Shown here: piece after piece, positions 197 through 46,191 of the stretch | How positions within the stretch are numbered: position 1 is the stretch's first letter | Layout of the letters: every line of letters starts with the position of its first letter | Source: Myxococcota bacterium | Lineage (GTDB): Bacteria; Myxococcota_A; Polyangia; Polyangiales; Houyiibacteriaceae | DNA length: 64,000 nucleotides | Direction: 5' to 3' | NCBI GenBank assembly: GCA_039030515.1 | Contig: JBCCEA010000021.1 | Span: 1 to 64,000 of the forward strand | Made by a program: the position numbers and the translations under genes | Notes under the pieces: model-generated | Seen by the model: the letters and a program-made list of their open reading frames with translations, nothing else | The model's database searches: none | Told to the model about the DNA's origin: nothing

Positions 197-310
197 GCTT
201 CCACGCACCGTACCCGGTCAGGTTTGGGGAGGTGGGCGATGCGTATCCGGCTTCCACGCACCGTACCCGGTCAGGTTTGGGGAGGTTTGGGGGGTCAGGT
301 TTGGGGAGAT
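197..310. repeat. 37-bp direct repeat x2 (197-233, 250-286) plus partial third copy (293-310)
   Basis: GCTTCCACGCACCGTACCCGGTCAGGTTTGGGGAGGT occurs twice with period 53; contains the CGTACCCGGTC core seen elsewhere. Confidence 0.9.
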
Positions 311-37008: not shown

Positions 37009-39255
37009 GTGTGGAGCTACCTTCTGCTCGTGCAGGGTTCCGATTCACTCAATCCCAGACAGCGAGAAGCCGCTGAGCATCGAGAAGGCCCGATGGTCGT
37101 CTTTGCGGGAGCGGGCAGTGGCAAAACACGGGTGATCACCCATCGAGTCTGCCGATTGGTGCTGGATCAAGGGGTTTCGGCCTACCGCATCGTCTGCGTT
37201 ACCTTCACCAACAAAGCTGCATCCGAAATGCGCGAACGGCTTCATACCCTGATGGGAGACGCAGCGGAGTCGCTGTGGGTAGGGACTTTTCACGCAACCT
37301 GCGCCCGAATTCTTCGACGCTTTCACGAAGAGGTCGGTGTCAGAAAAACCTTCACAATCTACGATGATGGCGACCAGGTCGCTTTGATCACCCGCATCCT
37401 TCGAGACCTGGGACTCCGCAAGGGTAAGTCCGACGCAAAAGAGATCGCGAGGGCTATCTCCCGCGCGAAGCAGGAGGTCATCGGCCCGCAGCAGTTTGAA
37501 GTGGAGCGACCCGCAGACGAACTCGTAGCCCTCATCTACCCCAAGTATCAGGACGCGCTTGATCGAGCGGGAGCCTTGGACTTCAGCGACTTGATCTATC
37601 GCCTGGTGGTGGCGCTTGAATCGACCGCCGCCCTACGCGCCGAGTTGCAGGCGCGATTCCATCACGTGCTGGTGGACGAGTTCCAAGATACCAACCACGT
37701 TCAGTTCCGTTTGCTCAGAGCGCTCTGCCCCGCCGACGGCAATCTCTTCGTCGTCGGTGATGACGACCAAAGCATCTACCGCTGGAGAGGCGCCGACCGC
37801 CGCAATATCCTAGATTTTCGGAGATGGTTCCAGGACGCTCAAGTGGTAAAATTGGAGGAAAACTACCGCTCTACCAAGCGAATTCTGCGCGTGGCGCATG
37901 CCGTGATCGAGCGCAATCTGGATCGCGAACCGAAAACGCTTTGGACTCAGAACGAAGAGGGAGATCCGGTAACCCTTTGGCACTGCGAGGACGAACGGGA
38001 CGAGGCGCATCGGATCGTCCGCGTACTGCAGGAGCACCTTGACGAGGGATGTTCGCTTGCCGAAATCGCGATATTCTATCGAATCCACGCGCAGTCCAGG
38101 GTGATCGAAGAAGCGCTTCGTGCGGCAGACCTCCCCTATCGAATCGTAGGCGGCACACGATTTTACGATAGGGCGGAGGTGAAAGACCTGCTCGCGTATC
38201 TACGGAGTATTCACAACCCGGACGACGATGTAAGCCTGCTTCGAATCATCAATACGCCCAGCCGAGGCATCGGAAAAACGACGTTGGATCGACTGCTCAA
38301 TCGTGCCGCCGAGCGCGGTGAAGGCGTGTACCACACCCTACAAAAACTCGATTCAGAGCCAAGCGAGATTCAACCAGCGGCGGCGAAACGACTTCAAAAG
38401 TTCGCGAAGCTGCTCGCATCCTTTCGCCAGGGGATCGAGGACGGCATTTCCATCAGCGCGCTGGGACGACGGGTAGTCGAAGAAACCGGCTACCGTGAGG
38501 CGCTGCAAAAGCAGGATACGCCGGAAGCCGACGCCCGTCTTCAAAACGTTGAAGAACTGCTGGGCTCGCTGACAGAGTTCGAACAGGAGGCGGAAGAACC
38601 GTCTCTCGGGGCATTTCTGGAGTTGGTCACTCTGCAAACCAGTGCAGACCTCCAGGAAAGCGGCGAGCGGGTGACGCTGATGACGGTACACGCCGCCAAG
38701 GGCCTTGAATTTCCATCAGTCCTGATCGCAGGTCTTGAAGAAAAGCTCTTCCCGCTCAGGATAGGCGACGAGCTCTATTTAGAAGACAGAGAAGAGCTCG
38801 AAGAAGAGCGGCGTCTTGCCTACGTTGCGTTCACTCGAGCCAAGGCCCGTCTCCATCTCTTTTACGGAAGCGTGCGGCGGATTTTTGGCAAACTCAACGT
38901 GGCCCAGCCTTCTCGGTTTCTCTCGGAAATCCCGACGAGCGACGTCATGACCATGGCCAGCATGCCAAGGCGCAACATCTCGCGTTCGTCGAAAGAACAT
39001 AGAATCTCTGGATACGGAACGCGCAGTGTCGACAAGTCTCCCTCCGCCCGCATGACAAAAGAATCCTACGTAGACACCACCGAGGGATTCGACTTCGAAT
39101 CTGGATCGTTTTGCACCGGAATGCGGGTACGTCATCGCAAATTCGGGGTGGGGTTGGTGCGAGACGTGTTGGAGGGCATTCCGCCTAGGGTCTCGGTGGA
39201 CTTCCCTGGGTGGGGGGTTAAGCGGATTGCGACGGCCTTTCTCGAGCCTCATTGA
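37009..39255 (+). CDS. uvrD: ATP-dependent DNA helicase UvrD/PcrA
   Basis: AGAGSGKT, TFTNKAA, VDEFQDTN, VGDDDQSIY.WRGA, LEENYRS, TVHAAKGLEF, EEERRLAYVAFTRA; start probably GTG 37030. Confidence 0.95.
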   Translation: MWSYLLLVQGSDSLNPRQREAAEHREGPMVVFAGAGSGKTRVITHRVCRLVLDQGVSAYRIVCVTFTNKAASEMRERLHTLMGDAAESLWVGTFHATCARILRRFHEEVGVRKTFTIYDDGDQVALITRILRDLGLRKGKSDAKEIARAISRAKQEVIGPQQFEVERPADELVALIYPKYQDALDRAGALDFSDLIYRLVVALESTAALRAELQARFHHVLVDEFQDTNHVQFRLLRALCPADGNLFVVGDDDQSIYRWRGADRRNILDFRRWFQDAQVVKLEENYRSTKRILRVAHAVIERNLDREPKTLWTQNEEGDPVTLWHCEDERDEAHRIVRVLQEHLDEGCSLAEIAIFYRIHAQSRVIEEALRAADLPYRIVGGTRFYDRAEVKDLLAYLRSIHNPDDDVSLLRIINTPSRGIGKTTLDRLLNRAAERGEGVYHTLQKLDSEPSEIQPAAAKRLQKFAKLLASFRQGIEDGISISALGRRVVEETGYREALQKQDTPEADARLQNVEELLGSLTEFEQEAEEPSLGAFLELVTLQTSADLQESGERVTLMTVHAAKGLEFPSVLIAGLEEKLFPLRIGDELYLEDREELEEERRLAYVAFTRAKARLHLFYGSVRRIFGKLNVAQPSRFLSEIPTSDVMTMASMPRRNISRSSKEHRISGYGTRSVDKSPSARMTKESYVDTTEGFDFESGSFCTGMRVRHRKFGVGLVRDVLEGIPPRVSVDFPGWGVKRIATAFLEPH

Positions 39256-39730
39256 GAGAGGGGCTGGCTCAGCTTGAGCGCCCGCTTGCCTCCCATGCTC
39301 GGAACTCGACGTACTACAGTACGCCTTCACTCCTCCGCTTCCGGGGCGCTGGACCCTCAAACCAATCCATCCCCTCTCTCCTTACCAGCTGGCTCAGCTT
39401 GAGCGTCCGCTGCCTCCCATGCTCGGAACTCGACGTACTACAGTACGCCTTCACTCCTCCGCTCCAGGGGGCCTATGTCGGCCCAAACAGCGGCTTACCT
39501 CCGATGCTCGGAGCTTGAAGTAGCGAAACTACTCCTGCGCTCCTGCGCTCCTGGGGCGCTGGCTGTTTGAACCAACCTAGGCCCCCTGCGGATGTCGTTG
39601 CTGAATTGGCCCAAACAGCCGCTTTGTATCTTCGGAGGCTGCTATGACTTCTAGCAACCAGAGACCGTGGCGGGGAAGTCGAGCCGCTTGCCTCCCATGC
39701 TCGGAACTCGACGTACTACAGTACGCCTTC
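39254..39730. repeat. Cluster 1 of a nested-hairpin REP/MITE-like repeat family
   Basis: Full copies 39254-39380 and 39465-39588; partial copies near 39388-39463 and 39685-39730; about 27-bp imperfect terminal inverted repeats. Confidence 0.9.
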
Positions 39731-39771
39731 GACGCCTTCGGTCCCCATGCCTCTAGGCACCAAACGGACAT

Positions 39772-40173
39772 TCAGTTAGGGGACTTGGAGCTCTGTTTTT
39801 TTGGCTTAGGCTTAGCCTTAGCTTTGGTTTCGGGCTTCGACGATTTGGACTCAGGCTTGGAAGCATCGCCGGCAGAGTTCTTGGATTCACTCTTGGGGCT
39901 TCCTTCGGTACTGGAGGACGAGTCTGCGCTTGACGAGTCTGCACTCGGAGCACTGGTTGTTTCACCCTCAGACGTGCTCTGATTGGACGGGCCGCTGTAC
40001 AGATCAGAATACCATCCGCCCCCTTTGAGGATGAAGCCGCTGCTCTGACTAATGAGCCGACGCACCTTTCGTTTGCCGCAGATGGGGCAGACTTTGATAG
40101 CCGCGTCTTTTATCGACTGCTCTTGCTCAAACTCTTGACCGCAGGCATCGCAAGCATACTCGTACGTGGGCAT
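39772..40173 (-). CDS. FmdB-family zinc-ribbon protein
   Basis: [12 protein letters not shown]...CPICG....RLIS...F.LKGGGWY, Ser/Lys-rich tail. Confidence 0.9.
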
Positions 40174-40225
40174 GAACTTCTCCCAAAGGCTCCAAACAAA
40201 ACGGCTTTGTAACGCTGTTCGGCGA

Positions 40226-40253
40226 AAAGTAAGCGGCCCTGCGCCGGTGTCAA
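40226..40253 (-). promoter_or_regulatory. Probable sigma70 promoter of the zinc-ribbon gene
   Basis: Minus strand TTGACA-N16-TACTTT. Confidence 0.55.
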
Positions 40254-40355
40254 GGGGTCAAGGCGCTCCATCGGACGCGGTCTCGAGACGATGTTCCCGG
40301 TAGCTCGGAGCTGCCGCATTGCAGACGTGGCCCAAATACCCACTCGCATCCGCCC

Positions 40356-41159
40356 TTAGCTCTCGCTCGCTCCCAACTCTCGCGTCTTCAGTTCCTCGAG
40401 CGCTGCTTCGAGTTCCGCCATCTCTGCTGCTTCGGGATCTGTTTCTTCTATGCGGGCCTCGACCGCCACGGTAGGAGCGTCATCCTGCACCATGCCCATT
40501 TTCCGTTTCAACGCGGCAAGCTCTTGCGCGGCGCTGGCGGTGGCCTCGAGTGATGCGAACTTGCTTTCGAGCGTGCCCCCGGTCTGCTGCTCACTGAGCT
40601 CAACGCTGGCTTCGGCTTCGGCCTCAATCTGATCGATTTGATTGGCCATTCTGTCGAATGTATCAAACGCGCTTGTGTCCGAGAGACCGCTCATCGTCTC
40701 GTGGATACTCTTCATCGCCTCCGCCCGACGTTTGCGCGTGATGAGCACGTTCTTTTTACGCTTTGCTTCCTCAATCTTGTCGCCTAGCGCCCGCAACGCG
40801 GTCTTGAGCTGTTCCGTCGCGCTTCTTTGTTTTTCCCACTGTTCGCTCAGCTGATCTGCAAGCTGAGCGTGCTCCTTCTTGCGGCCAAGCGCCTCTTTGG
40901 CGAGATCGTCTTCCCCTGCCTGAATCGCTAGAATCGCCTTTCGCTCCCAGTCTTCTGCCGTGCCCAGCTGGCTTTTGTATTGTTTCTGAAGGCGTTTCTC
41001 ATCGGCGATCGCCACCGCAACCTGTTTCTTGGCTTCAGTCAGCTGTTGATTCATTTCGAGGATGACCTGATTGAGCATCTTTTCGGGATCTTCAGCCCGA
41101 TTGATCAAGTCGTTTAGGTTGCTCTTGATAAGCTGAGCGAGTCGGCCAAAAAACCCCAT
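40356..41159 (-). CDS. pspA: PspA/IM30 (ESCRT-III-like) protein
   Basis: MGFFGRL..LIKSNLN.LI..AEDPEKML.Q, W..KA..A...G.DDLAKEAL, FDRM. Confidence 0.93.
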   Translation of the reverse strand: MGFFGRLAQLIKSNLNDLINRAEDPEKMLNQVILEMNQQLTEAKKQVAVAIADEKRLQKQYKSQLGTAEDWERKAILAIQAGEDDLAKEALGRKKEHAQLADQLSEQWEKQRSATEQLKTALRALGDKIEEAKRKKNVLITRKRRAEAMKSIHETMSGLSDTSAFDTFDRMANQIDQIEAEAEASVELSEQQTGGTLESKFASLEATASAAQELAALKRKMGMVQDDAPTVAVEARIEETDPEAAEMAELEAALEELKTRELGASES

Positions 41160-41172
41160 CCGTTGCTCCTAA

Positions 41173-41571
41173 TCAGGCTTGGCTACGAAAACGAGCCAAG
41201 GTTTCGTAGTGGTTGGTAAGGGCCAGGGAGAAGTCGTCAAGCGTGCCTTGAAACTCAGAGTAGTCGAGATGCTCGATTCGGAGGGTACAGGTAAGCACGA
41301 CATTGCCATCCGAAACTCCGTAAGCGCCGTGCACCATGTCTTCGGCATTCCACTGGAGAAGTTGCGCGTACAGAGCGGGCTCTTCCGCCACCGTAGATAG
41401 CTCGAGGACCTTGACTCGAAAGAGAACAAGTGGGCCGTCGAGCCGTACTACGATTCTCTCTCCTGAAGCCCGCCCTTCCAGCAGCCACATGGCGTCTCCA
41501 TCTTTTCCAACCTCTTGGTGGGGAAGCCCGCTACGCATCAGATATGATTCAATATCTTCTCGTGTGTGCAT
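41173..41571 (-). CDS. YbjN/CesT-like chaperone-fold protein
   Basis: GGAG RBS before ATG 41571; LYAQLLQWNA.DMVHGAYGV....VVL...L....LD..EF. Confidence 0.75.
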   Translation of the reverse strand: MHTREDIESYLMRSGLPHQEVGKDGDAMWLLEGRASGERIVVRLDGPLVLFRVKVLELSTVAEEPALYAQLLQWNAEDMVHGAYGVSDGNVVLTCTLRIEHLDYSEFQGTLDDFSLALTNHYETLARFRSQA

Positions 41572-41641
41572 CTTCTCTCCGAAAGGGAACGGGGCCTCAG
41601 ACCTTAAGCTGAGCCGACCTGGAACTGCTGGAGGAGTGTGT

Positions 41642-42541
41642 TCATGCTTCCTCATCTCCAGCAGGATTGGCGAGCTTTCTCGTCCAAAGAATCGCGTCTT
41701 TTCGTTCCTCACCGATCAACATCGCTTTTGCAAGCAAACCAGTCTTTCGGTAGCCAGCTGCGAGGAAACTGGTCGAGAGCGCCACATCGTCCGAGGGGGC
41801 AAAGGAGAATGCGCTAACGATACCTCGCGCTTTGAGCTCCTCACCGATATCCCTTAGACCTCCAGTGAGTGCGTGCACTTCACTTTCTTCTTTAGGAGTC
41901 CTCAGTACTTCCATCAGAGAGTGTCCGAAACAGTCCTGAAATTCGATGGAGATAAAGTTGGGTTTCGCCTTCTTGTACGCGACGCTGTAGTGCGCTCTCT
42001 CTGCGTCCCGTCCAAAAGGGTCAAACGTGCCGATTGCGGAAAGTCGCTTCCACTGCTGGTCGCGAGCAGAAAGCGCTTCTTTTTCTTCGGCAATATCGAG
42101 CTTGACCTTCAGCTCCTCGGGAACGTTCTTCAATTCTTTCTTGGCGGCGTTGATCGTTCGCTCCGAAAGCTTGACGTCCGATTCGGTGAGTTCCTCGGAG
42201 GCAGTGCGGCTTCCGATAACGCATCCGCAAAGATGGCCGTCGCTTCGCTTATAAAATCCAGGGATGGTCCCTTCTCGAACAAAACCAACCCGAGTCCAGG
42301 AGGAGACTTCATCTTTCTCGACGAGCGTGATCACTTTGTGGACCTGCTCACGTTTGGCTACCGACTGGATATAAAGTCGCTTTGCCGGGAGCGCTCCGGC
42401 ACGAAAGTCGATGACGCGAATGGAGCGCGTCCTCCGATTCAGTACGAGGCAAAGATATGCGCTCTCCGATCGAAAGTAGAGCTCTTCTACGGTAGGAAGC
42501 GACTCCTTCGATTTAGGCTTCGCCTTTGCTGTGCGGACCAA
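41642..42541 (-). CDS. Tandem-GNAT protein resembling beta-lysine N-acetyltransferase AblB
   Basis: IRVIDFR, KVI, GF.REG.IPGFY...DG in the N-half; ELKARGI.SAF..A...GY...G.L.....IG.....ILW.RKL in the C-half. Confidence 0.55.
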   Translation of the reverse strand: MVRTAKAKPKSKESLPTVEELYFRSESAYLCLVLNRRTRSIRVIDFRAGALPAKRLYIQSVAKREQVHKVITLVEKDEVSSWTRVGFVREGTIPGFYKRSDGHLCGCVIGSRTASEELTESDVKLSERTINAAKKELKNVPEELKVKLDIAEEKEALSARDQQWKRLSAIGTFDPFGRDAERAHYSVAYKKAKPNFISIEFQDCFGHSLMEVLRTPKEESEVHALTGGLRDIGEELKARGIVSAFSFAPSDDVALSTSFLAAGYRKTGLLAKAMLIGEERKDAILWTRKLANPAGDEEA

Positions 42542-42737
42542 ACTGCACCCCCCTGGCAATAGGATTCGGACGGGTTGCGAAGCTACGAAATACGCGAGGG
42601 GCTGTCAATGGAGCCGCATTCCGGTAGATCGAAGCGGCTGGAGGAGCGCCGCAGCAAGCCACTCCCTGCCTGATGGTCGCTGTCTTGAAGCCGCTCAACC
42701 GACGGGCGCCTTCACGCTACTGCACTATGCTTCGGCG

Positions 42738-43343
42738 GTGGACCCATCGCCCTCACATCCTCCCAAGCAGACCATCCGGTCGATGGTGCTTTTTTCGGCG
42801 GCTTTGAGTTTTATCGGCACGTGCGGCATTCAGCGAGGCATCACCGACATCGATCCGCCCCCGACACCCGAGGCCACTGAGTCTCAGAGCGAGCTTGAGG
42901 CCGCCAATCACAATACGGTAGCTGCCATTGCGGAGACGACGTTCAGCGCCCCTTGGCGCGCAAAACTCGGTGCAATGAACATCGTCCTAAGCTTCATGCT
43001 GATCGCGGCCGCCATCCTACTCGCCACCCGCAGCAGACATGCGATCTGGTGGACCCAACAAAGCTTGATCGCCAACGCACTGTGGACGGTGGCCGACATG
43101 ACATCGATTGCCCAGTCCATGCTTGAGGCGAAGCCCGAGCTCGTTGACCTACTCACCGTCCAGGCCCACCTCACCGATCCGGATACGGACAGCGCGTTCA
43201 TGGCGAACACGAGCTATTGGCTTTTTGTTGCCTCGATTGTCATCGCCGGTATCGCTCGCCTACTCGTCTACGTCTACGCGGCCTTCTGGCTTCGACGCAG
43301 TGAAGTTCAGACCCTTATTCCGCCGACCAACGAGACGCCCTAG
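42738..43343 (+). CDS. Hypothetical 4-TM membrane protein
   Basis: Four hydrophobic segments; start uncertain. Confidence 0.65.
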   Translation: MDPSPSHPPKQTIRSMVLFSAALSFIGTCGIQRGITDIDPPPTPEATESQSELEAANHNTVAAIAETTFSAPWRAKLGAMNIVLSFMLIAAAILLATRSRHAIWWTQQSLIANALWTVADMTSIAQSMLEAKPELVDLLTVQAHLTDPDTDSAFMANTSYWLFVASIVIAGIARLLVYVYAAFWLRRSEVQTLIPPTNETP

Positions 43344-43373
43344 TGGGGGCATCCACCACCCCCCAGCACGCCT

Positions 43374-44021
43374 CCAGCGGGCCTATGTCGGCCCAAACAG
43401 CTGCTTTCCTCCCATGCTCGGAGCTTGAAGTAGCCAAACTACTCCTGCGCTCCTCTGCTTCCGGGGCGCTGGCTGTTTGAACCAACCTAGGCCCCCTGGG
43501 TGGTGGTGGTCTCTAGGCCCAAACAGCTGCTTTCCTCCCATGCTCGTCCCTTGAAGTAGCCAAACTACTCCTGCGCTCCTGTGCTTCCGGGGCGCTGGCC
43601 GTTCAAACCCATCGAGACGCGCTGGGCCGAGGAGGAGGGTACGAATGGGTACCTGACGACGACGAGCGAAGAGGAAGCGGCTGGTTGGGCCGACATACGC
43701 GTGCCCAGCGGGCCTAGGTTGGTTCAAACAGCTAGCGCCCCCGTGGCGAGGAGGAGGAGGGTACTTAAGGTACCTGACGACGACGAGCGAAGAGGAAGCA
43801 GCTGTTTGGGCCGACATACGCGTGCCCAGCGGGCCTAGGTTGGTTCAAACAGCTAGCGCCCCCGTGGCGAGGAGGAGGAGGGTACTTAAGGTACCTGACA
43901 ACGACGAGCGAGGAGGAAAGCAGCTGTTTGGGCCGACATAGGCCCGCTGGGAGGAAGCAGCTGTTTGGGCCAACCTAGACCCGCTGGGAGGAAGCGGCTG
44001 GTTGGGCCGACATAGACCCGC
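43374..44021. repeat. Cluster 2 of the same hairpin repeat family, copies in both orientations
   Basis: 43374-43499 and 43509-43618 oriented as in cluster 1; 43704-43824 and 43825-43951 (121-bp tandem) inverted; partial arms at about 43620-43700 and 43951-44021. Confidence 0.92.
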
Positions 44022-44023
44022 CT

Positions 44024-44764
44024 TTAGAAGGAGACGCGACGCATAATCATACGAGGCAACCACCGAATCACGCCCATCACGGCGCCCCATATGGCGGGCG
44101 TATAGACGACAGGGTGGCCGCGGTCGATTCCGCGAAGTACGGGCCCGACAGTATCTTCCGGGTCTGCGGAAAAAGGCGGTTGCGCAAGACCTGCCGTCAT
44201 CGAGGTACGGATGAATCCCGGCTTGACGTTGACTACTTTGAGCCCCTCCGAACGATAGCGGTGATCCAATCCTTCGAGGTAGTGAGAAAGACCCGCCTTT
44301 GAGGCGCCGTAGAGCACCACCGGCTTGCGACCACGATCTCCTGCTACCGAGCTAAAGACGCAGATCGTACCGCCACCAGAGGCCAAAAGCCGGCGACGCA
44401 GCGCTTCACAGAACAAAATCGTATTGGTGAAGTTGGTCGTGAGCACCTGGGCAAGTCGATCTTGATCGCACTCCAACTGCTTTTGGGTTCCAAACAGCCC
44501 GGCCGTCACAACTGCAGTATCGATACCGCCAAGAAACGCCTCTGCCTCAGAGAGCGCCGAATCGAAGCACTCCGGCTTCAACAAGTCACAAACGGCAGTG
44601 CCGATCTTGGCGGCTCCACCGCGAATCCGTAGATCGTCGGCGCTACGCTCAAGATCGGCCTGTTGACGACCTAGCAAGACGATCGCGTCGCCGCGCTCCG
44701 CCATAGCTCGAGATATTGCGCGTCCCATACCGCGGGTTGCACCAAGAAATACCACGCGTCCCAT
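44024..44764 (-). CDS. Short-chain dehydrogenase/reductase, DprE2-like
   Basis: GATRGMG, SSVAGDRGR...LYGASKAG (YxxxK), KPGFIRTSMT; directly follows the DprE1-like gene. Confidence 0.85.
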   Translation of the reverse strand: MGRVVFLGATRGMGRAISRAMAERGDAIVLLGRQQADLERSADDLRIRGGAAKIGTAVCDLLKPECFDSALSEAEAFLGGIDTAVVTAGLFGTQKQLECDQDRLAQVLTTNFTNTILFCEALRRRLLASGGGTICVFSSVAGDRGRKPVVLYGASKAGLSHYLEGLDHRYRSEGLKVVNVKPGFIRTSMTAGLAQPPFSADPEDTVGPVLRGIDRGHPVVYTPAIWGAVMGVIRWLPRMIMRRVSF

Positions 44765-44787
44765 CGTCTTCCTCTCGCTGCTGGGGA

Positions 44788-46191
44788 CTAGCGCTCGGGG
44801 TCCTTGAGCAGCCGAACAGATTGACGGCTCCGAAACACCCGCTCGGGATCCCACTGGTCTCGAATACGATTGAACTCTTCCAGACGAGGTTCCATCGCAT
44901 GAAAATGTTCTGACAGCGTCAGTGTATCCTTCGTCAGATACATCCGGCCGCCCTCTTTGAGCACCTGTTCATTCAGGTCGTTGATCGCCTCCTGAATCCC
45001 GTCTCCAAGAGGTATGTCGAGCGCGATGCTCATCCCCGGCTTGGGAAAAGACAAGACGCCCTCTCCCTCAGCGCCACAGTCCTTGATCACGGCGAGGGGA
45101 GAAGCGCAACCGTGCTCGGTCAGGATCTCGAGCACCCTTCTCGCAGAACCAGGACCCGCTTCCCGAGGAAGGACGCACTGATACTGGGTAAATCCTCGCG
45201 GACCATAAACCCGATTCCAGTGTTGAATCGCGTCCAGCGGGTAAAAAAATTGAAGCGGATCTACGAGCGCCGAACGTTTTGGGGGGAAATGAGCTCGGTA
45301 GTACATTTCGTTGAATAGCGCGACGGAGCTTCGTCCGAGAGCCCAGTTGGGAAACTCAAACGGTAGGGTGGGACGCGCTAGAGCCTTTGGAGACTGCTTC
45401 GGTGCCTCTCCCGCTTCTGCCCAGCGACCTTGAATAAGAATGCCTCGCCCGATGTCTTTGCCGTTTTTGCTGCGTTTGACGCAATCGATCCAACCTACGG
45501 TCATCGGCCATTCTTTTGCGGCCTCGATGAGCGCATCCTGGAACACATCGATATTCGGTATACGTTTGGTCTCCTGGTAGATCCACGGACTGGGAATGCG
45601 ACGCATTTTCAGTTCGACTTCGAGGATATGCCCGGTCAAGCCCATGCCGCCAACGGTGGCCCGAAAGAGATCTTCGTGTTCTTGCCGGCTGCACCAGAGC
45701 ACCCGTCCATCGGCTACCTGCATGCGCAACCGAATGACGTGTGCACCGATGCAGCCGTCGACATGGTGGTTCTTGCCGTGGATGTCCGAGGCGACCATGC
45801 CCCCCAGAGTGACGAAGGCGGTCCCGGGAGATACCGGCGTGAACCAACCTCTCGGCAAGAAGAGGCGATTCATCTCGGCAAGGGAAAGGCCAGACTCGGC
45901 GAGCAACAGGCCGGTTGCCTCGTCGAAAGAGAGCAGCCTGTCGGCTCGAGTCGTGTTGAGGGCCACGGGACGGTCCGCGGGTGGCAGGGAGGAGTCGCCG
46001 TAAGAGCGACCTAGACCCCGAGCGATCGGTGCGATCGGAGAAGTAACGAGATTTTCAGGAGTCACTTCGCGGGCTTCGACAGCGACTCGCCCCCAGCCCG
46101 CAAGGGTGCTGCGCTTCCCCTCCCCTGCCGACGGTTCGTCGTTTGATCGTGCGCCATCTGCTCTTGCGCTGTGGGTGGACGGGCTTGCCAT
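44788..46191 (-). CDS. FAD-binding oxidoreductase, DprE1-like
   Basis: RGLGRSYGD, PGTAFVTLGG..ASDIHGKNHH, FFYPLD, WNRVYG..GF.QYQ, LSFP, GGRMYL.KD. Confidence 0.88.
   Translation of the reverse strand: MASPSTHSARADGARSNDEPSAGEGKRSTLAGWGRVAVEAREVTPENLVTSPIAPIARGLGRSYGDSSLPPADRPVALNTTRADRLLSFDEATGLLLAESGLSLAEMNRLFLPRGWFTPVSPGTAFVTLGGMVASDIHGKNHHVDGCIGAHVIRLRMQVADGRVLWCSRQEHEDLFRATVGGMGLTGHILEVELKMRRIPSPWIYQETKRIPNIDVFQDALIEAAKEWPMTVGWIDCVKRSKNGKDIGRGILIQGRWAEAGEAPKQSPKALARPTLPFEFPNWALGRSSVALFNEMYYRAHFPPKRSALVDPLQFFYPLDAIQHWNRVYGPRGFTQYQCVLPREAGPGSARRVLEILTEHGCASPLAVIKDCGAEGEGVLSFPKPGMSIALDIPLGDGIQEAINDLNEQVLKEGGRMYLTKDTLTLSEHFHAMEPRLEEFNRIRDQWDPERVFRSRQSVRLLKDPER

Follow-up and report, generated by a model that had tools for sequence, protein, structure and literature searches.

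The repeats in the window (the whole stretch of 64,000 nucleotides analyzed here, from a Myxococcota bacterium) are copies of a ~127-bp hairpin that is likely a gene-less, mobile, non-autonomous element spread across many myxobacteria. What is conserved in the family is, as supported by covariation and strand-specific mismatches, a single-stranded fold (RNA or ssDNA). The hairpin has an invariant ~70-nt core, with a bulged A, a GAGG-N-AAGC motif and tandem G·A/GNA loops, and an outer stem of ~29 bp whose sequence varies freely at constant pairing and length. At least 11 arm groups, all on one core, occur within a single genome; the copies therefore lack a shared end sequence. The genome of the window (G000) carries 188 cores at 84 loci.

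Nine apical cores (three each of types A, B and C) and several arm stubs lie in the window, in two clusters at 39254-39730 and 43359-44021 (Table 1). Cluster 1 fills the gap between the convergent uvrD/pcrA (+, stop at 39255) and FmdB-type zinc-ribbon (-, stop at 39772) genes, and cluster 2 that between a 270-aa ORF (+) without an NCBIfam match and an SDR gene (-). The original prediction had placed about ten copies here, in two clusters between convergent genes, which agrees with the cores, stubs and gene strands found. It had also counted an IS110 left-end remnant as part of cluster 1, and its three variants hold as core types, with copy B3 adding a fourth type of arm (D).

Table 1. Components of the two repeat clusters and their flanking genes, in window positions.
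Feature	Position	Strand	Remarks
uvrD/pcrA helicase gene (flank, outside element)	37009..39255	+	
Full copy A1, 127 nt, arm type A	39254..39380	-	3' end overlaps uvrD stop codon (39253-39255)
Copy A2, 5' ~45 nt missing	39382..39463	-	Blunt junction to B1 3' end
Full copy B1, 126 nt	39464..39589	-	
Spacer and 3'-arm stub	39590..39624	-	Contains left half of IS110 target (…CAGCCGCTT on +)
IS110 left-end remnant	39625..39689	+	Ends in predicted left target guide GAGCCGCTT (39681-39689)
Partial copy A3, core remainder	39690..39730	-	Meets IS110 remnant via shared GCCGCTT
Stub of D-type 3' arm	43359..43373	-	
Full copy B2, 126 nt	43374..43499	-	
Copy B3: D-type 5' arm, B core, shortened 3' arm, spacer; 126-nt tandem unit	43500..43625	-	
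Copy C0, 5' ~42 nt missing	43626..43703	+	Back-to-back junction with B3 5' end
Copy C1, 3' arm shortened; 121-nt tandem unit	43704..43824	+	
Full copy C2, 127 nt; core is a tandem G·A loop ladder	43825..43951	+	
3' arm, two 37-nt duplications	43952..44021	+	End 2 nt from SDR stop codon (44024-44026)
SDR oxidoreductase gene (flank, outside element)	44024..44854	-	

On their favored strand, the four full window copies fold with z-scores of -7.0 to -9.6 (RNA) and -4.8 to -6.9 (DNA), 16-22 kcal/mol (RNA) better than the other strand, which also folds (RNA z -3.4 to -6.4). The favored strand is the better fold in 87 of 94 copies. Among 24 variants of this genome, double-sided changes occur at 35 of the 47 pairs and 90% of cells pair; none of 500 shuffles did as well and slid controls pair at 35-40%. 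Across families the figures are 41 of 47 pairs and 93% paired (0/500 shuffles). The mismatches mark one strand, as 62 distinct arm pairs hold 212 G·T against 33 A·C and 75 G·A against 14 C·T in their outer arms, and the corresponding ratios in 74 relatives' copies are 176:9 and 78:4. Covarying nested stems and conservation of a single-stranded fold rather than a duplex sequence, both claimed in the original prediction, are thus borne out; so are its strand-specific wobbles, although many G·A/GNA internal loops mark the strand too.

Only covariance models reached the relatives' copies; BLASTN with one copy matched none of 30 relatives. With the model, the same core turns up in other classes and, within the order, in 78 of 150 genomes; over the phylum its occurrence is patchy (45 of 400 genomes). 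The uvrD site is empty in all 29 relatives, most element sites are lineage-specific, and copies are tandem and nested, in line with the mobility first suspected. The nested copy at G000:C60 splits its host copy with no base gained or lost, and the distances between cores group around 82-86, 121-129 and 159-167 nt, the pattern that a single internal insertion point close to nucleotide 42 would give. A 42-nt periodicity was dropped because tandem units in relatives vary from 114 to 142 nt. No 3-bp target duplication is present at any of 104 short copies in relatives or at 54 of 55 here. Viral contigs gave nine pattern matches, none confirmed by the covariance models, and plasmid and phage records gave no match at E 0.01 and only chance-level ones at E 10. 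Rfam 15 has no match in the window; 11 copies returned only weak miRNA-precursor matches (E 0.5-4), none above the gathering threshold. Outside subscription journals, ISfinder and supplements, a literature search found no account of the family. Being short, non-coding, dispersed and absent from an orthologous site, the window repeats are kin of MITE/REPIN-like elements, in a short form that has no transposon ends and nests bluntly.

This kinship is clearest in distant lineages, where the core sits within elements of 176-180 nt. As the automated 'long' class includes tandem artefacts, the long-form counts are taken from hand-picked loci. Identical 3-mers flank 15 of 23 long forms, 12 of these being TAA/TTA, and the tips of 11 of the 23 match eight intact ISAzo13 ends at a score reached by none of 300 shuffles. 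Like ISAzo13-family MITEs (PF07592 DDE), these long relatives have terminal inverted repeats that start GG with an A-rich run at 13-18, as well as 3-bp TAA/TTA duplications; they are true MITEs. A second long group (tips GAGGGTGT…) matched ISAzo13 ends weakly (3 of 12 at p<=0.01). By contrast, the short form in the window lacks both tips and duplications (scores against ISAzo13 tips of -11.5 to 0.9, no match), and the hairpin interior is a conserved strand-specific fold rather than free sequence. The long forms also fold strand-specifically (21/23 with RNA and 23/23 with DNA energies), though DDE-type ends need no fold, so a strand-specific fold alone is no proof of a single-stranded route. 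A fixed-register count of mismatches in long-form arms, in which bulges shift the register, runs against the strand bias (A·C 21 versus G·T 10); folding of the whole elements favors the same strand as in the short form.

The short form is oriented relative to genes, the folded strand meeting the end of an antisense gene, or a tRNA, with its 3' end. Among complete copies in relatives, 37 of 74 end at an antisense stop codon and only 2 of 74 in the opposite orientation, whereas the long forms touch stops either way (3 sense, 2 antisense of 23). Single convergent gaps hold both orientations (window cluster 2; C2, C7, C24 and C44 of this genome), and orientation therefore follows the neighboring gene. 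Four copies abut tRNA 3' ends and three, in sense orientation, tRNA 5' starts. Unique DNA borders intact 3' ends in this genome, and most of the 5' ends that point outward are truncated. In genus g3, 20 of 30 nrdJ loci have kept the element, with compensatory changes, a pattern that fits a host function as well; nrdJ copies persist in another family too, and some have decayed or been lost.

We propose, with about an even chance of being right, that the short form is a gene-less hairpin related to ISAzo13-type MITEs that is copied as folded ssDNA and joined bluntly by a core-binding enzyme encoded elsewhere. A single folded DNA strand would be the copied form, and the enzyme would recognize the conserved core, not the ends, acting like a ruler. 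Blunt joining into new sites would follow, the receiving strand presumably being the template strand of the gene. One-sided deletions with arm-to-arm correction may then draw the base of the stem up to the stop codon, and replication slippage could make the tandem arrays. A broader version, which we consider unlikely, holds that a conserved myxobacterial protein recognizes the ~70-nt tandem-G·A core as a single-strand signal of ancient origin, that at least two kinds of tip were acquired and that tips were shed in Polyangiales, leaving an end-independent, ruler-type ssDNA spread to the template strand at gene ends.

Our leading guess for the core-binding enzyme, a tentative one, is an HUH/Y1 protein. 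The HUH/RAYT link in the original prediction was not borne out: among the best-scoring Y1 loci, none of 63 (the sole Y1 gene of this genome and 62 others; model R2) has a copy within 1.5 kb, nor do 31 further loci (model R1) have one, so that no RAYT/IS200-like transposase flanked by copies emerged. PF01797 (RAYT) has no match in G000, and NF047646 has one, below cut-off; its 31 relatives, like 60 Y1 loci of relatives, are without an element copy. Y1 genes are common in element-free genomes and were not found in several element-bearing ones. A Y2 transposase search gave no match, but neither did its control.

In the available text of PMC3116915, PMC8266576 and PMC3733652, REPIN/REP/BIME repeats are moved by RAYT (TnpA-REP) HUH enzymes. 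As far as described there, REPINs are, like our family, ssDNA hairpins of ~100-130 nt that undergo compensatory changes, lie outside genes in tandem and nested arrangements, are recognized strand-specifically, often touch stop codons and serve as an IS110 target; they keep their ends and vary inside, whereas the hairpin family keeps its middle and leaves its ends free. Furthermore, no GTAG stands at the stem foot (it occurs only in some apical stems, and the ends vary), no RAYT is flanked, and the core spans an order, not a species group.

The same data could be read otherwise. Unlikely, in our view, is that the short form is an ordinary cut-and-paste MITE, moved as duplex DNA by a DDE transposase. 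Targeting of TNA triplets would then account for the stop codons, later arm correction would have turned the direct duplication into the inverted stop triplet of many stems, and the strand bias would be left over from selection. The TAA/TTA duplications and ISAzo13-type tips of the long forms fit this, as does the stop codon that many short stems include together with its complement in the far arm. Stops adjoining the element here are TAA in 10 of 19 cases, against 448 of 2369 genome-wide. Arm correction does take place: in 17 of 19 readable nrdJ copies, compared by eye, the far arm tracks whether the last Ser codon is TCC or AGC. However, the short forms share no terminal sequence, even recent nested insertions lack a duplication, and short forms touch stops almost only in antisense. 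ISAzo13 was found in none of the 23 genomes sampled from the organism's own family, and PF07592 has no match in G000 (85% complete). G000 does carry genes that by our own reading are IS5-like, ISAs1-like and IS1380-like transposases, for which no ends matching the element were seen.

Somewhat less probable still is a domesticated cis signal, in which a host protein would recognize the core either in the template strand of the DNA (for example as a PriA-type priming hairpin) or in an antisense RNA, the host keeping gene-end copies and mobility being secondary. The conservation of the core across the order and into other classes is in favor of this, REP families usually reaching far less widely, as is the long persistence at nrdJ. 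A similar G·A ladder, ending in GAGGAAGCGG, is found at ColE1 1310-1362, a region not annotated in the record that we take to be the primosome assembly site; it is the best local match for two of six cores, but no better than shuffles, and neither the covariance model nor the core HMM gave it a score. The patchy distribution, the decay or loss of nrdJ copies and the lineage-specific sites also count against a host signal, and sibling MITEs with the same tips have a different middle. The primosome assembly site itself (n'-pas/ssiA; ColE1, phiX174) was set aside as a candidate, showing no significant similarity and a likeness by eye only.

A SINE-like route, in which the favored strand is RNA and cDNA is primed from a 3' end at the coding-strand end of a gene or at a tRNA, is improbable. 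It would fit the polarity of intact and truncated ends, the antisense orientation and the four copies at tRNA 3' ends; yet no reverse transcriptase was found in the 85% complete G000, the three sense copies at tRNA 5' starts are unexplained by priming from 3' ends, and the long relatives have DDE-type ends. Even less probable is an amplified mRNA 3'-UTR structure (a stabilizer, processing or termination signal), as the original prediction had also offered. In convergent gaps, including both in the window, the transcript of the opposite gene would carry the favored fold, and the disfavored strand folds too. Nevertheless, in 37 of the 39 relatives' copies that are informative, and in all 17 here, it is the C·A/C·T strand that appears in the mRNA of the abutting gene, and at many co-directional sites, such as nusG-rplK and nrdJ-dapF, no mRNA holds the favored fold; with the folded strand antisense to the abutting gene, the element is not an mRNA 3'-UTR fold.

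An attC-like site for an integron-type tyrosine recombinase is the least probable of all: attC sites carry, at the foot of the stem, R and L boxes with extrahelical bases, whereas here the stem-base sequence is unconstrained, the conserved bases lie ~29 bp away from it, the variable ends lack the R-box consensus, the neighbors are housekeeping genes rather than a cassette array, and no integrase in G000 passes the cut-off (TIGR02249, best 81 bits against 265). The likeness lies in a start at the stop codon, a similar length and a purine-rich bottom strand that folds, the bottom strand being the one used in attC sites according to the available text of bioRxiv 2022.09.11.507474.

The core is in turn the apparent target of another element. 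The window IS110 remnant is 95% identical over 80 nt, target included, to an intact copy at G000:C3:161433-162720, and this IS110 (NF033542, 208 bits) lies in the repeat at all three readable right junctions. As with the bridge RNA of IS621/IS110, its left end matches the left target over 9 nt and the donor over 8 nt, the bridge RNA being predicted. Unlike in IS621, the target core is TT where the donor core has CT, and against the commonest target the predicted right guide shows one mismatch. The IS110 has thus inserted into the conserved core motif of the hairpin, a fixed motif that matches its predicted guides. IS621 and other IS110 elements insert into REP repeats as described in the available text of PMC11208160.

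The hairpin family bears on the origin and movement of small palindromic repeats, still an open question. Over a whole order it forms a natural series in which one fold occurs both in tip-bearing MITEs with duplications and in tip-less, blunt, orientation-biased copies, which makes it possible to test directly whether a structured repeat can change from duplex to single-strand movement. It also offers a defined substrate for finding the core-binding protein, and a new natural pair of IS110 target and predicted bridge RNA with a core mismatch. If the short form were only an eroded MITE, it would still be a repeat missing from the catalogs, and one at which the assembly breaks for a third of the contig ends of this genome (51 of 150 lie in it). 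If instead the core is an ancient signal spread by a ruler-type enzyme, the family would represent an undescribed transposition route and, as a living link, would join DDE MITEs to REPIN/attC-like ssDNA elements.

The hairpin repeats form a genuine mobile family that had not been catalogued. The two clusters that the original prediction described in the window were borne out by reading of the sequence and a repeat search, as were the convergent genes flanking each, and nine apical cores were counted against roughly ten copies claimed. The element has an outer stem of ~29 bp whose sequence is free. Its middle part is conserved and carries GAGG-N-AAGC as well as a bulged A; loops of the tandem G·A or GNA/GA type separate the stems, and the apical loop varies. 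On folding, four full copies far exceeded their shuffles, with one strand better than the other as had been proposed, and energy was lower on this favoured strand in 87 of the 94 host-genome (G000) copies with full flanks. The 62 distinct complete arm pairs in G000 form 11 groups; their mismatches on the favoured strand (G·T 212, G·A 75 and G·G 65 vs A·C 33 and C·T 14) agree with the predicted wobble bias, and one copy per group gives G·T 29 and A·C 9. The nested stems also covary, with double-sided changes in 35 of 47 pairs among 24 chosen genome variants, and no shuffle of 500 matched these variants on any measure, a statistic that ignores relatedness.

G000 (4.08 Mb, 85% complete), to which the window belongs as contig 21 (G000:C21), has 84 loci, found by BLAST with nine window pieces as queries, and 188 cores, and 51/150 contig ends fall inside the repeat. 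BLASTN detected the element in none of 30 relatives. The covariance model R1 matched 49/87 genomes of the family, in six other genera, and the broader R2 matched 78/150 genomes of the order, in 19 of 24 families (G194 being counted in order tallies only), and 26/150 of a phylum sample. Judging by gene content, the order is probably Polyangiales and the phylum Myxococcota. When 400 genomes of the phylum were scanned with a strict core pattern, 45 in addition to G000 matched, other classes included, with four reversed-control matches among the matches listed and a few single hits resembling chance. Covariation was seen in 41/47 pairs of a cross-family alignment that is fitted to the model and contains one antisense and two partial matches. 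The Rfam search called for by the original prediction gave no match, and no description of the family was found by literature searches that covered passages of PMC8266576, PMC6006769, PMC3733652, PMC3116915, PMC11208160, bioRxiv 2022.09.11.507474, PMC3167613, PMC5778457, PMC5935869 and PMC9208149.

Comparison with empty sites, also suggested originally, agrees with mobility, as the 3' end of uvrD is core-free in all 29 relatives (0/29 loci). The convergent fmdB was located in 13 of these 29, and the gap is ≤81 nt in 10, versus 516 in G000. At the nrdJ site, a recurrent locus in one genus (g3), R1 scores 20 of 30 loci and the others are decayed; two trace-free loci end in TAA, filled loci end in TGA, and the last codon precedes the far arm in 17/19 copies judged by eye. 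Adjacent cores are spaced in groups of 82-86, 121-129 and 159-167 nt, and junctions occur where a precise element end meets an interior position of another copy. On contig C60 of G000, a type D copy interrupts its host copy with zero bases gained or lost. Tandem units in relatives span 114-142 nt, and in most of them the distal part of the 3' arm is missing.

Among 74 complete copies of relatives, 37 have an antisense stop codon ≤8 nt from the 3' stem end, a figure inflated by kin because many are from the nrdJ site, and in two a stop codon in sense orientation lies at the 5' end. The corresponding counts in G000, where many copies are cluster-internal, are 17/82 and 0/82; random intergenic control points lie near a stop in 184/4124 cases. 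A simpler test found the antisense placement in 17 of the 20 best hits from other families. Single convergent gaps contain both orientations, and orientation is thus set by the neighbouring gene rather than by replication direction. Since the favoured strand is antisense, the abutting gene's mRNA holds the weaker-folding strand, and the suggested mRNA 3'-UTR element was not borne out. REP ends often provide stop codons, according to the available text of PMC3733652, in which myxobacterial names were not found. Four copies adjoin tRNA 3' ends in antisense and three adjoin tRNA 5' starts in sense. Three copies lie within a tRNA-Ile/tRNA-Ala spacer region (L250, G085), and three within a Thr-Tyr-Gly-Thr tRNA cluster ahead of tuf (L246, G124). 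In the complete genome G124 (L245-L264), copies are farther from stop codons; their stems are shorter and AT-rich, with degenerate ~10-nt direct repeats outside.

An intact IS110 (NF033542) in G000 is positioned at the GG-T-AAGC motif, as are IS110 right ends on C4 and C58. Its left end has two predicted loops, in which GAGCCGCTT equals the left target and ACAGTTGC the donor; this resembles, as modeled, the bridge RNA arrangement of loops with target- and donor-matching guides described in the available part of PMC11208160. One stretch of the first cluster, originally assigned to the hairpin repeat, is instead a remnant of this left end, probably cut off by a deletion across a shared GCCGCTT. 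Two homologues in G112 are inserted in elaborated hairpin copies at a site other than that in G000, although R2 confirms only one of the pair (1/14 loci at E<0.01). IS110 is a parasite of the repeat; as its guides mismatch the nested-insertion site, it probably does not move the hairpin element. Further end remnants lie outside the repeat (Table). In G011, where the hairpin family was not found, homologues (L296, L306) are inserted in another repeat, ~250 nt long, which has multiple hairpins and many CTTCG loops.

No mover was identified. The proposed RAYT/HUH link is unsupported: the only Y1 HUH gene of G000 scores below the RAYT cut-off and has no flanking copies, and R2 found no copy within any of 63 Y1 loci. 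Reverse transcriptase, integrase and ISAzo13 were sought in the 85% complete G000 and not found. A likeness to the ColE1 priming hairpin failed three statistical tests.

Coordinates of features in the window, other G000 contigs and numbered loci
Feature	Location	Remarks
Apical cores	window 39254-43951	nine
IS110 left-end remnant	window 39625-39689	
Genes between clusters	window 40356-42559	pspA, small unnamed gene, GNAT-like gene; same orientation
Second repeat family, CCTGACC(A/G)GGTACGG	window 208-280	two matches; 206 in G000 on 29 contigs, many at contig ends
Intact IS110	C3:161433-162720	
IS110 end remnant	C13:34630-34730	left-guide sequence altered
IS110 end remnant	C5:104999-105021	
IS110 end remnant	C17:12970-13049	
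Y1 HUH gene	L020:1483-2394 (C48:3223-4134)	303 aa, long C-terminal extension
Frameshifted transposase, presumably IS5-like	L426:552-1311 (C34)	adjoins a gene we take to be ISAs1-like

In distant lineages, the core is embedded in elements of 176-180 nt. Identical 3-mers flank 15 of 23 hand-picked long forms (TAA 7, TTA 5, and TGA, ACA and AAA), and 3 and 2 of the 23 lie at stop codons in the two orientations. Intact ISAzo13 elements of the order have the same kind of ends. On a tip profile built from eight ISAzo13 ends picked by eye, 11 of the 23 outscore all 300 control shuffles. Most of the remaining 12 have GAGGGTGT tips, and three of these 12 reach p≤0.01. Window copies gave no score, and no 3-bp TAA/TTA-type duplication of the long-form kind was found at short forms. 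Sibling MITEs (L381, L385 and L388, in G439 and G504) that bear GAGGGTGT tips between TAA/TTA flanks have only the apical hairpin in common with the family, and tips and cores are therefore exchangeable modules. G439 holds 54 matches to the GAGGGTGT tip.

The family works like REPINs and MITEs, and the long form is a MITE, but the window's short form has neither the ends nor the duplication of either class. The surprise of the family is raised by a core conserved across the order, while the arms are free in sequence and the ends are of two types.
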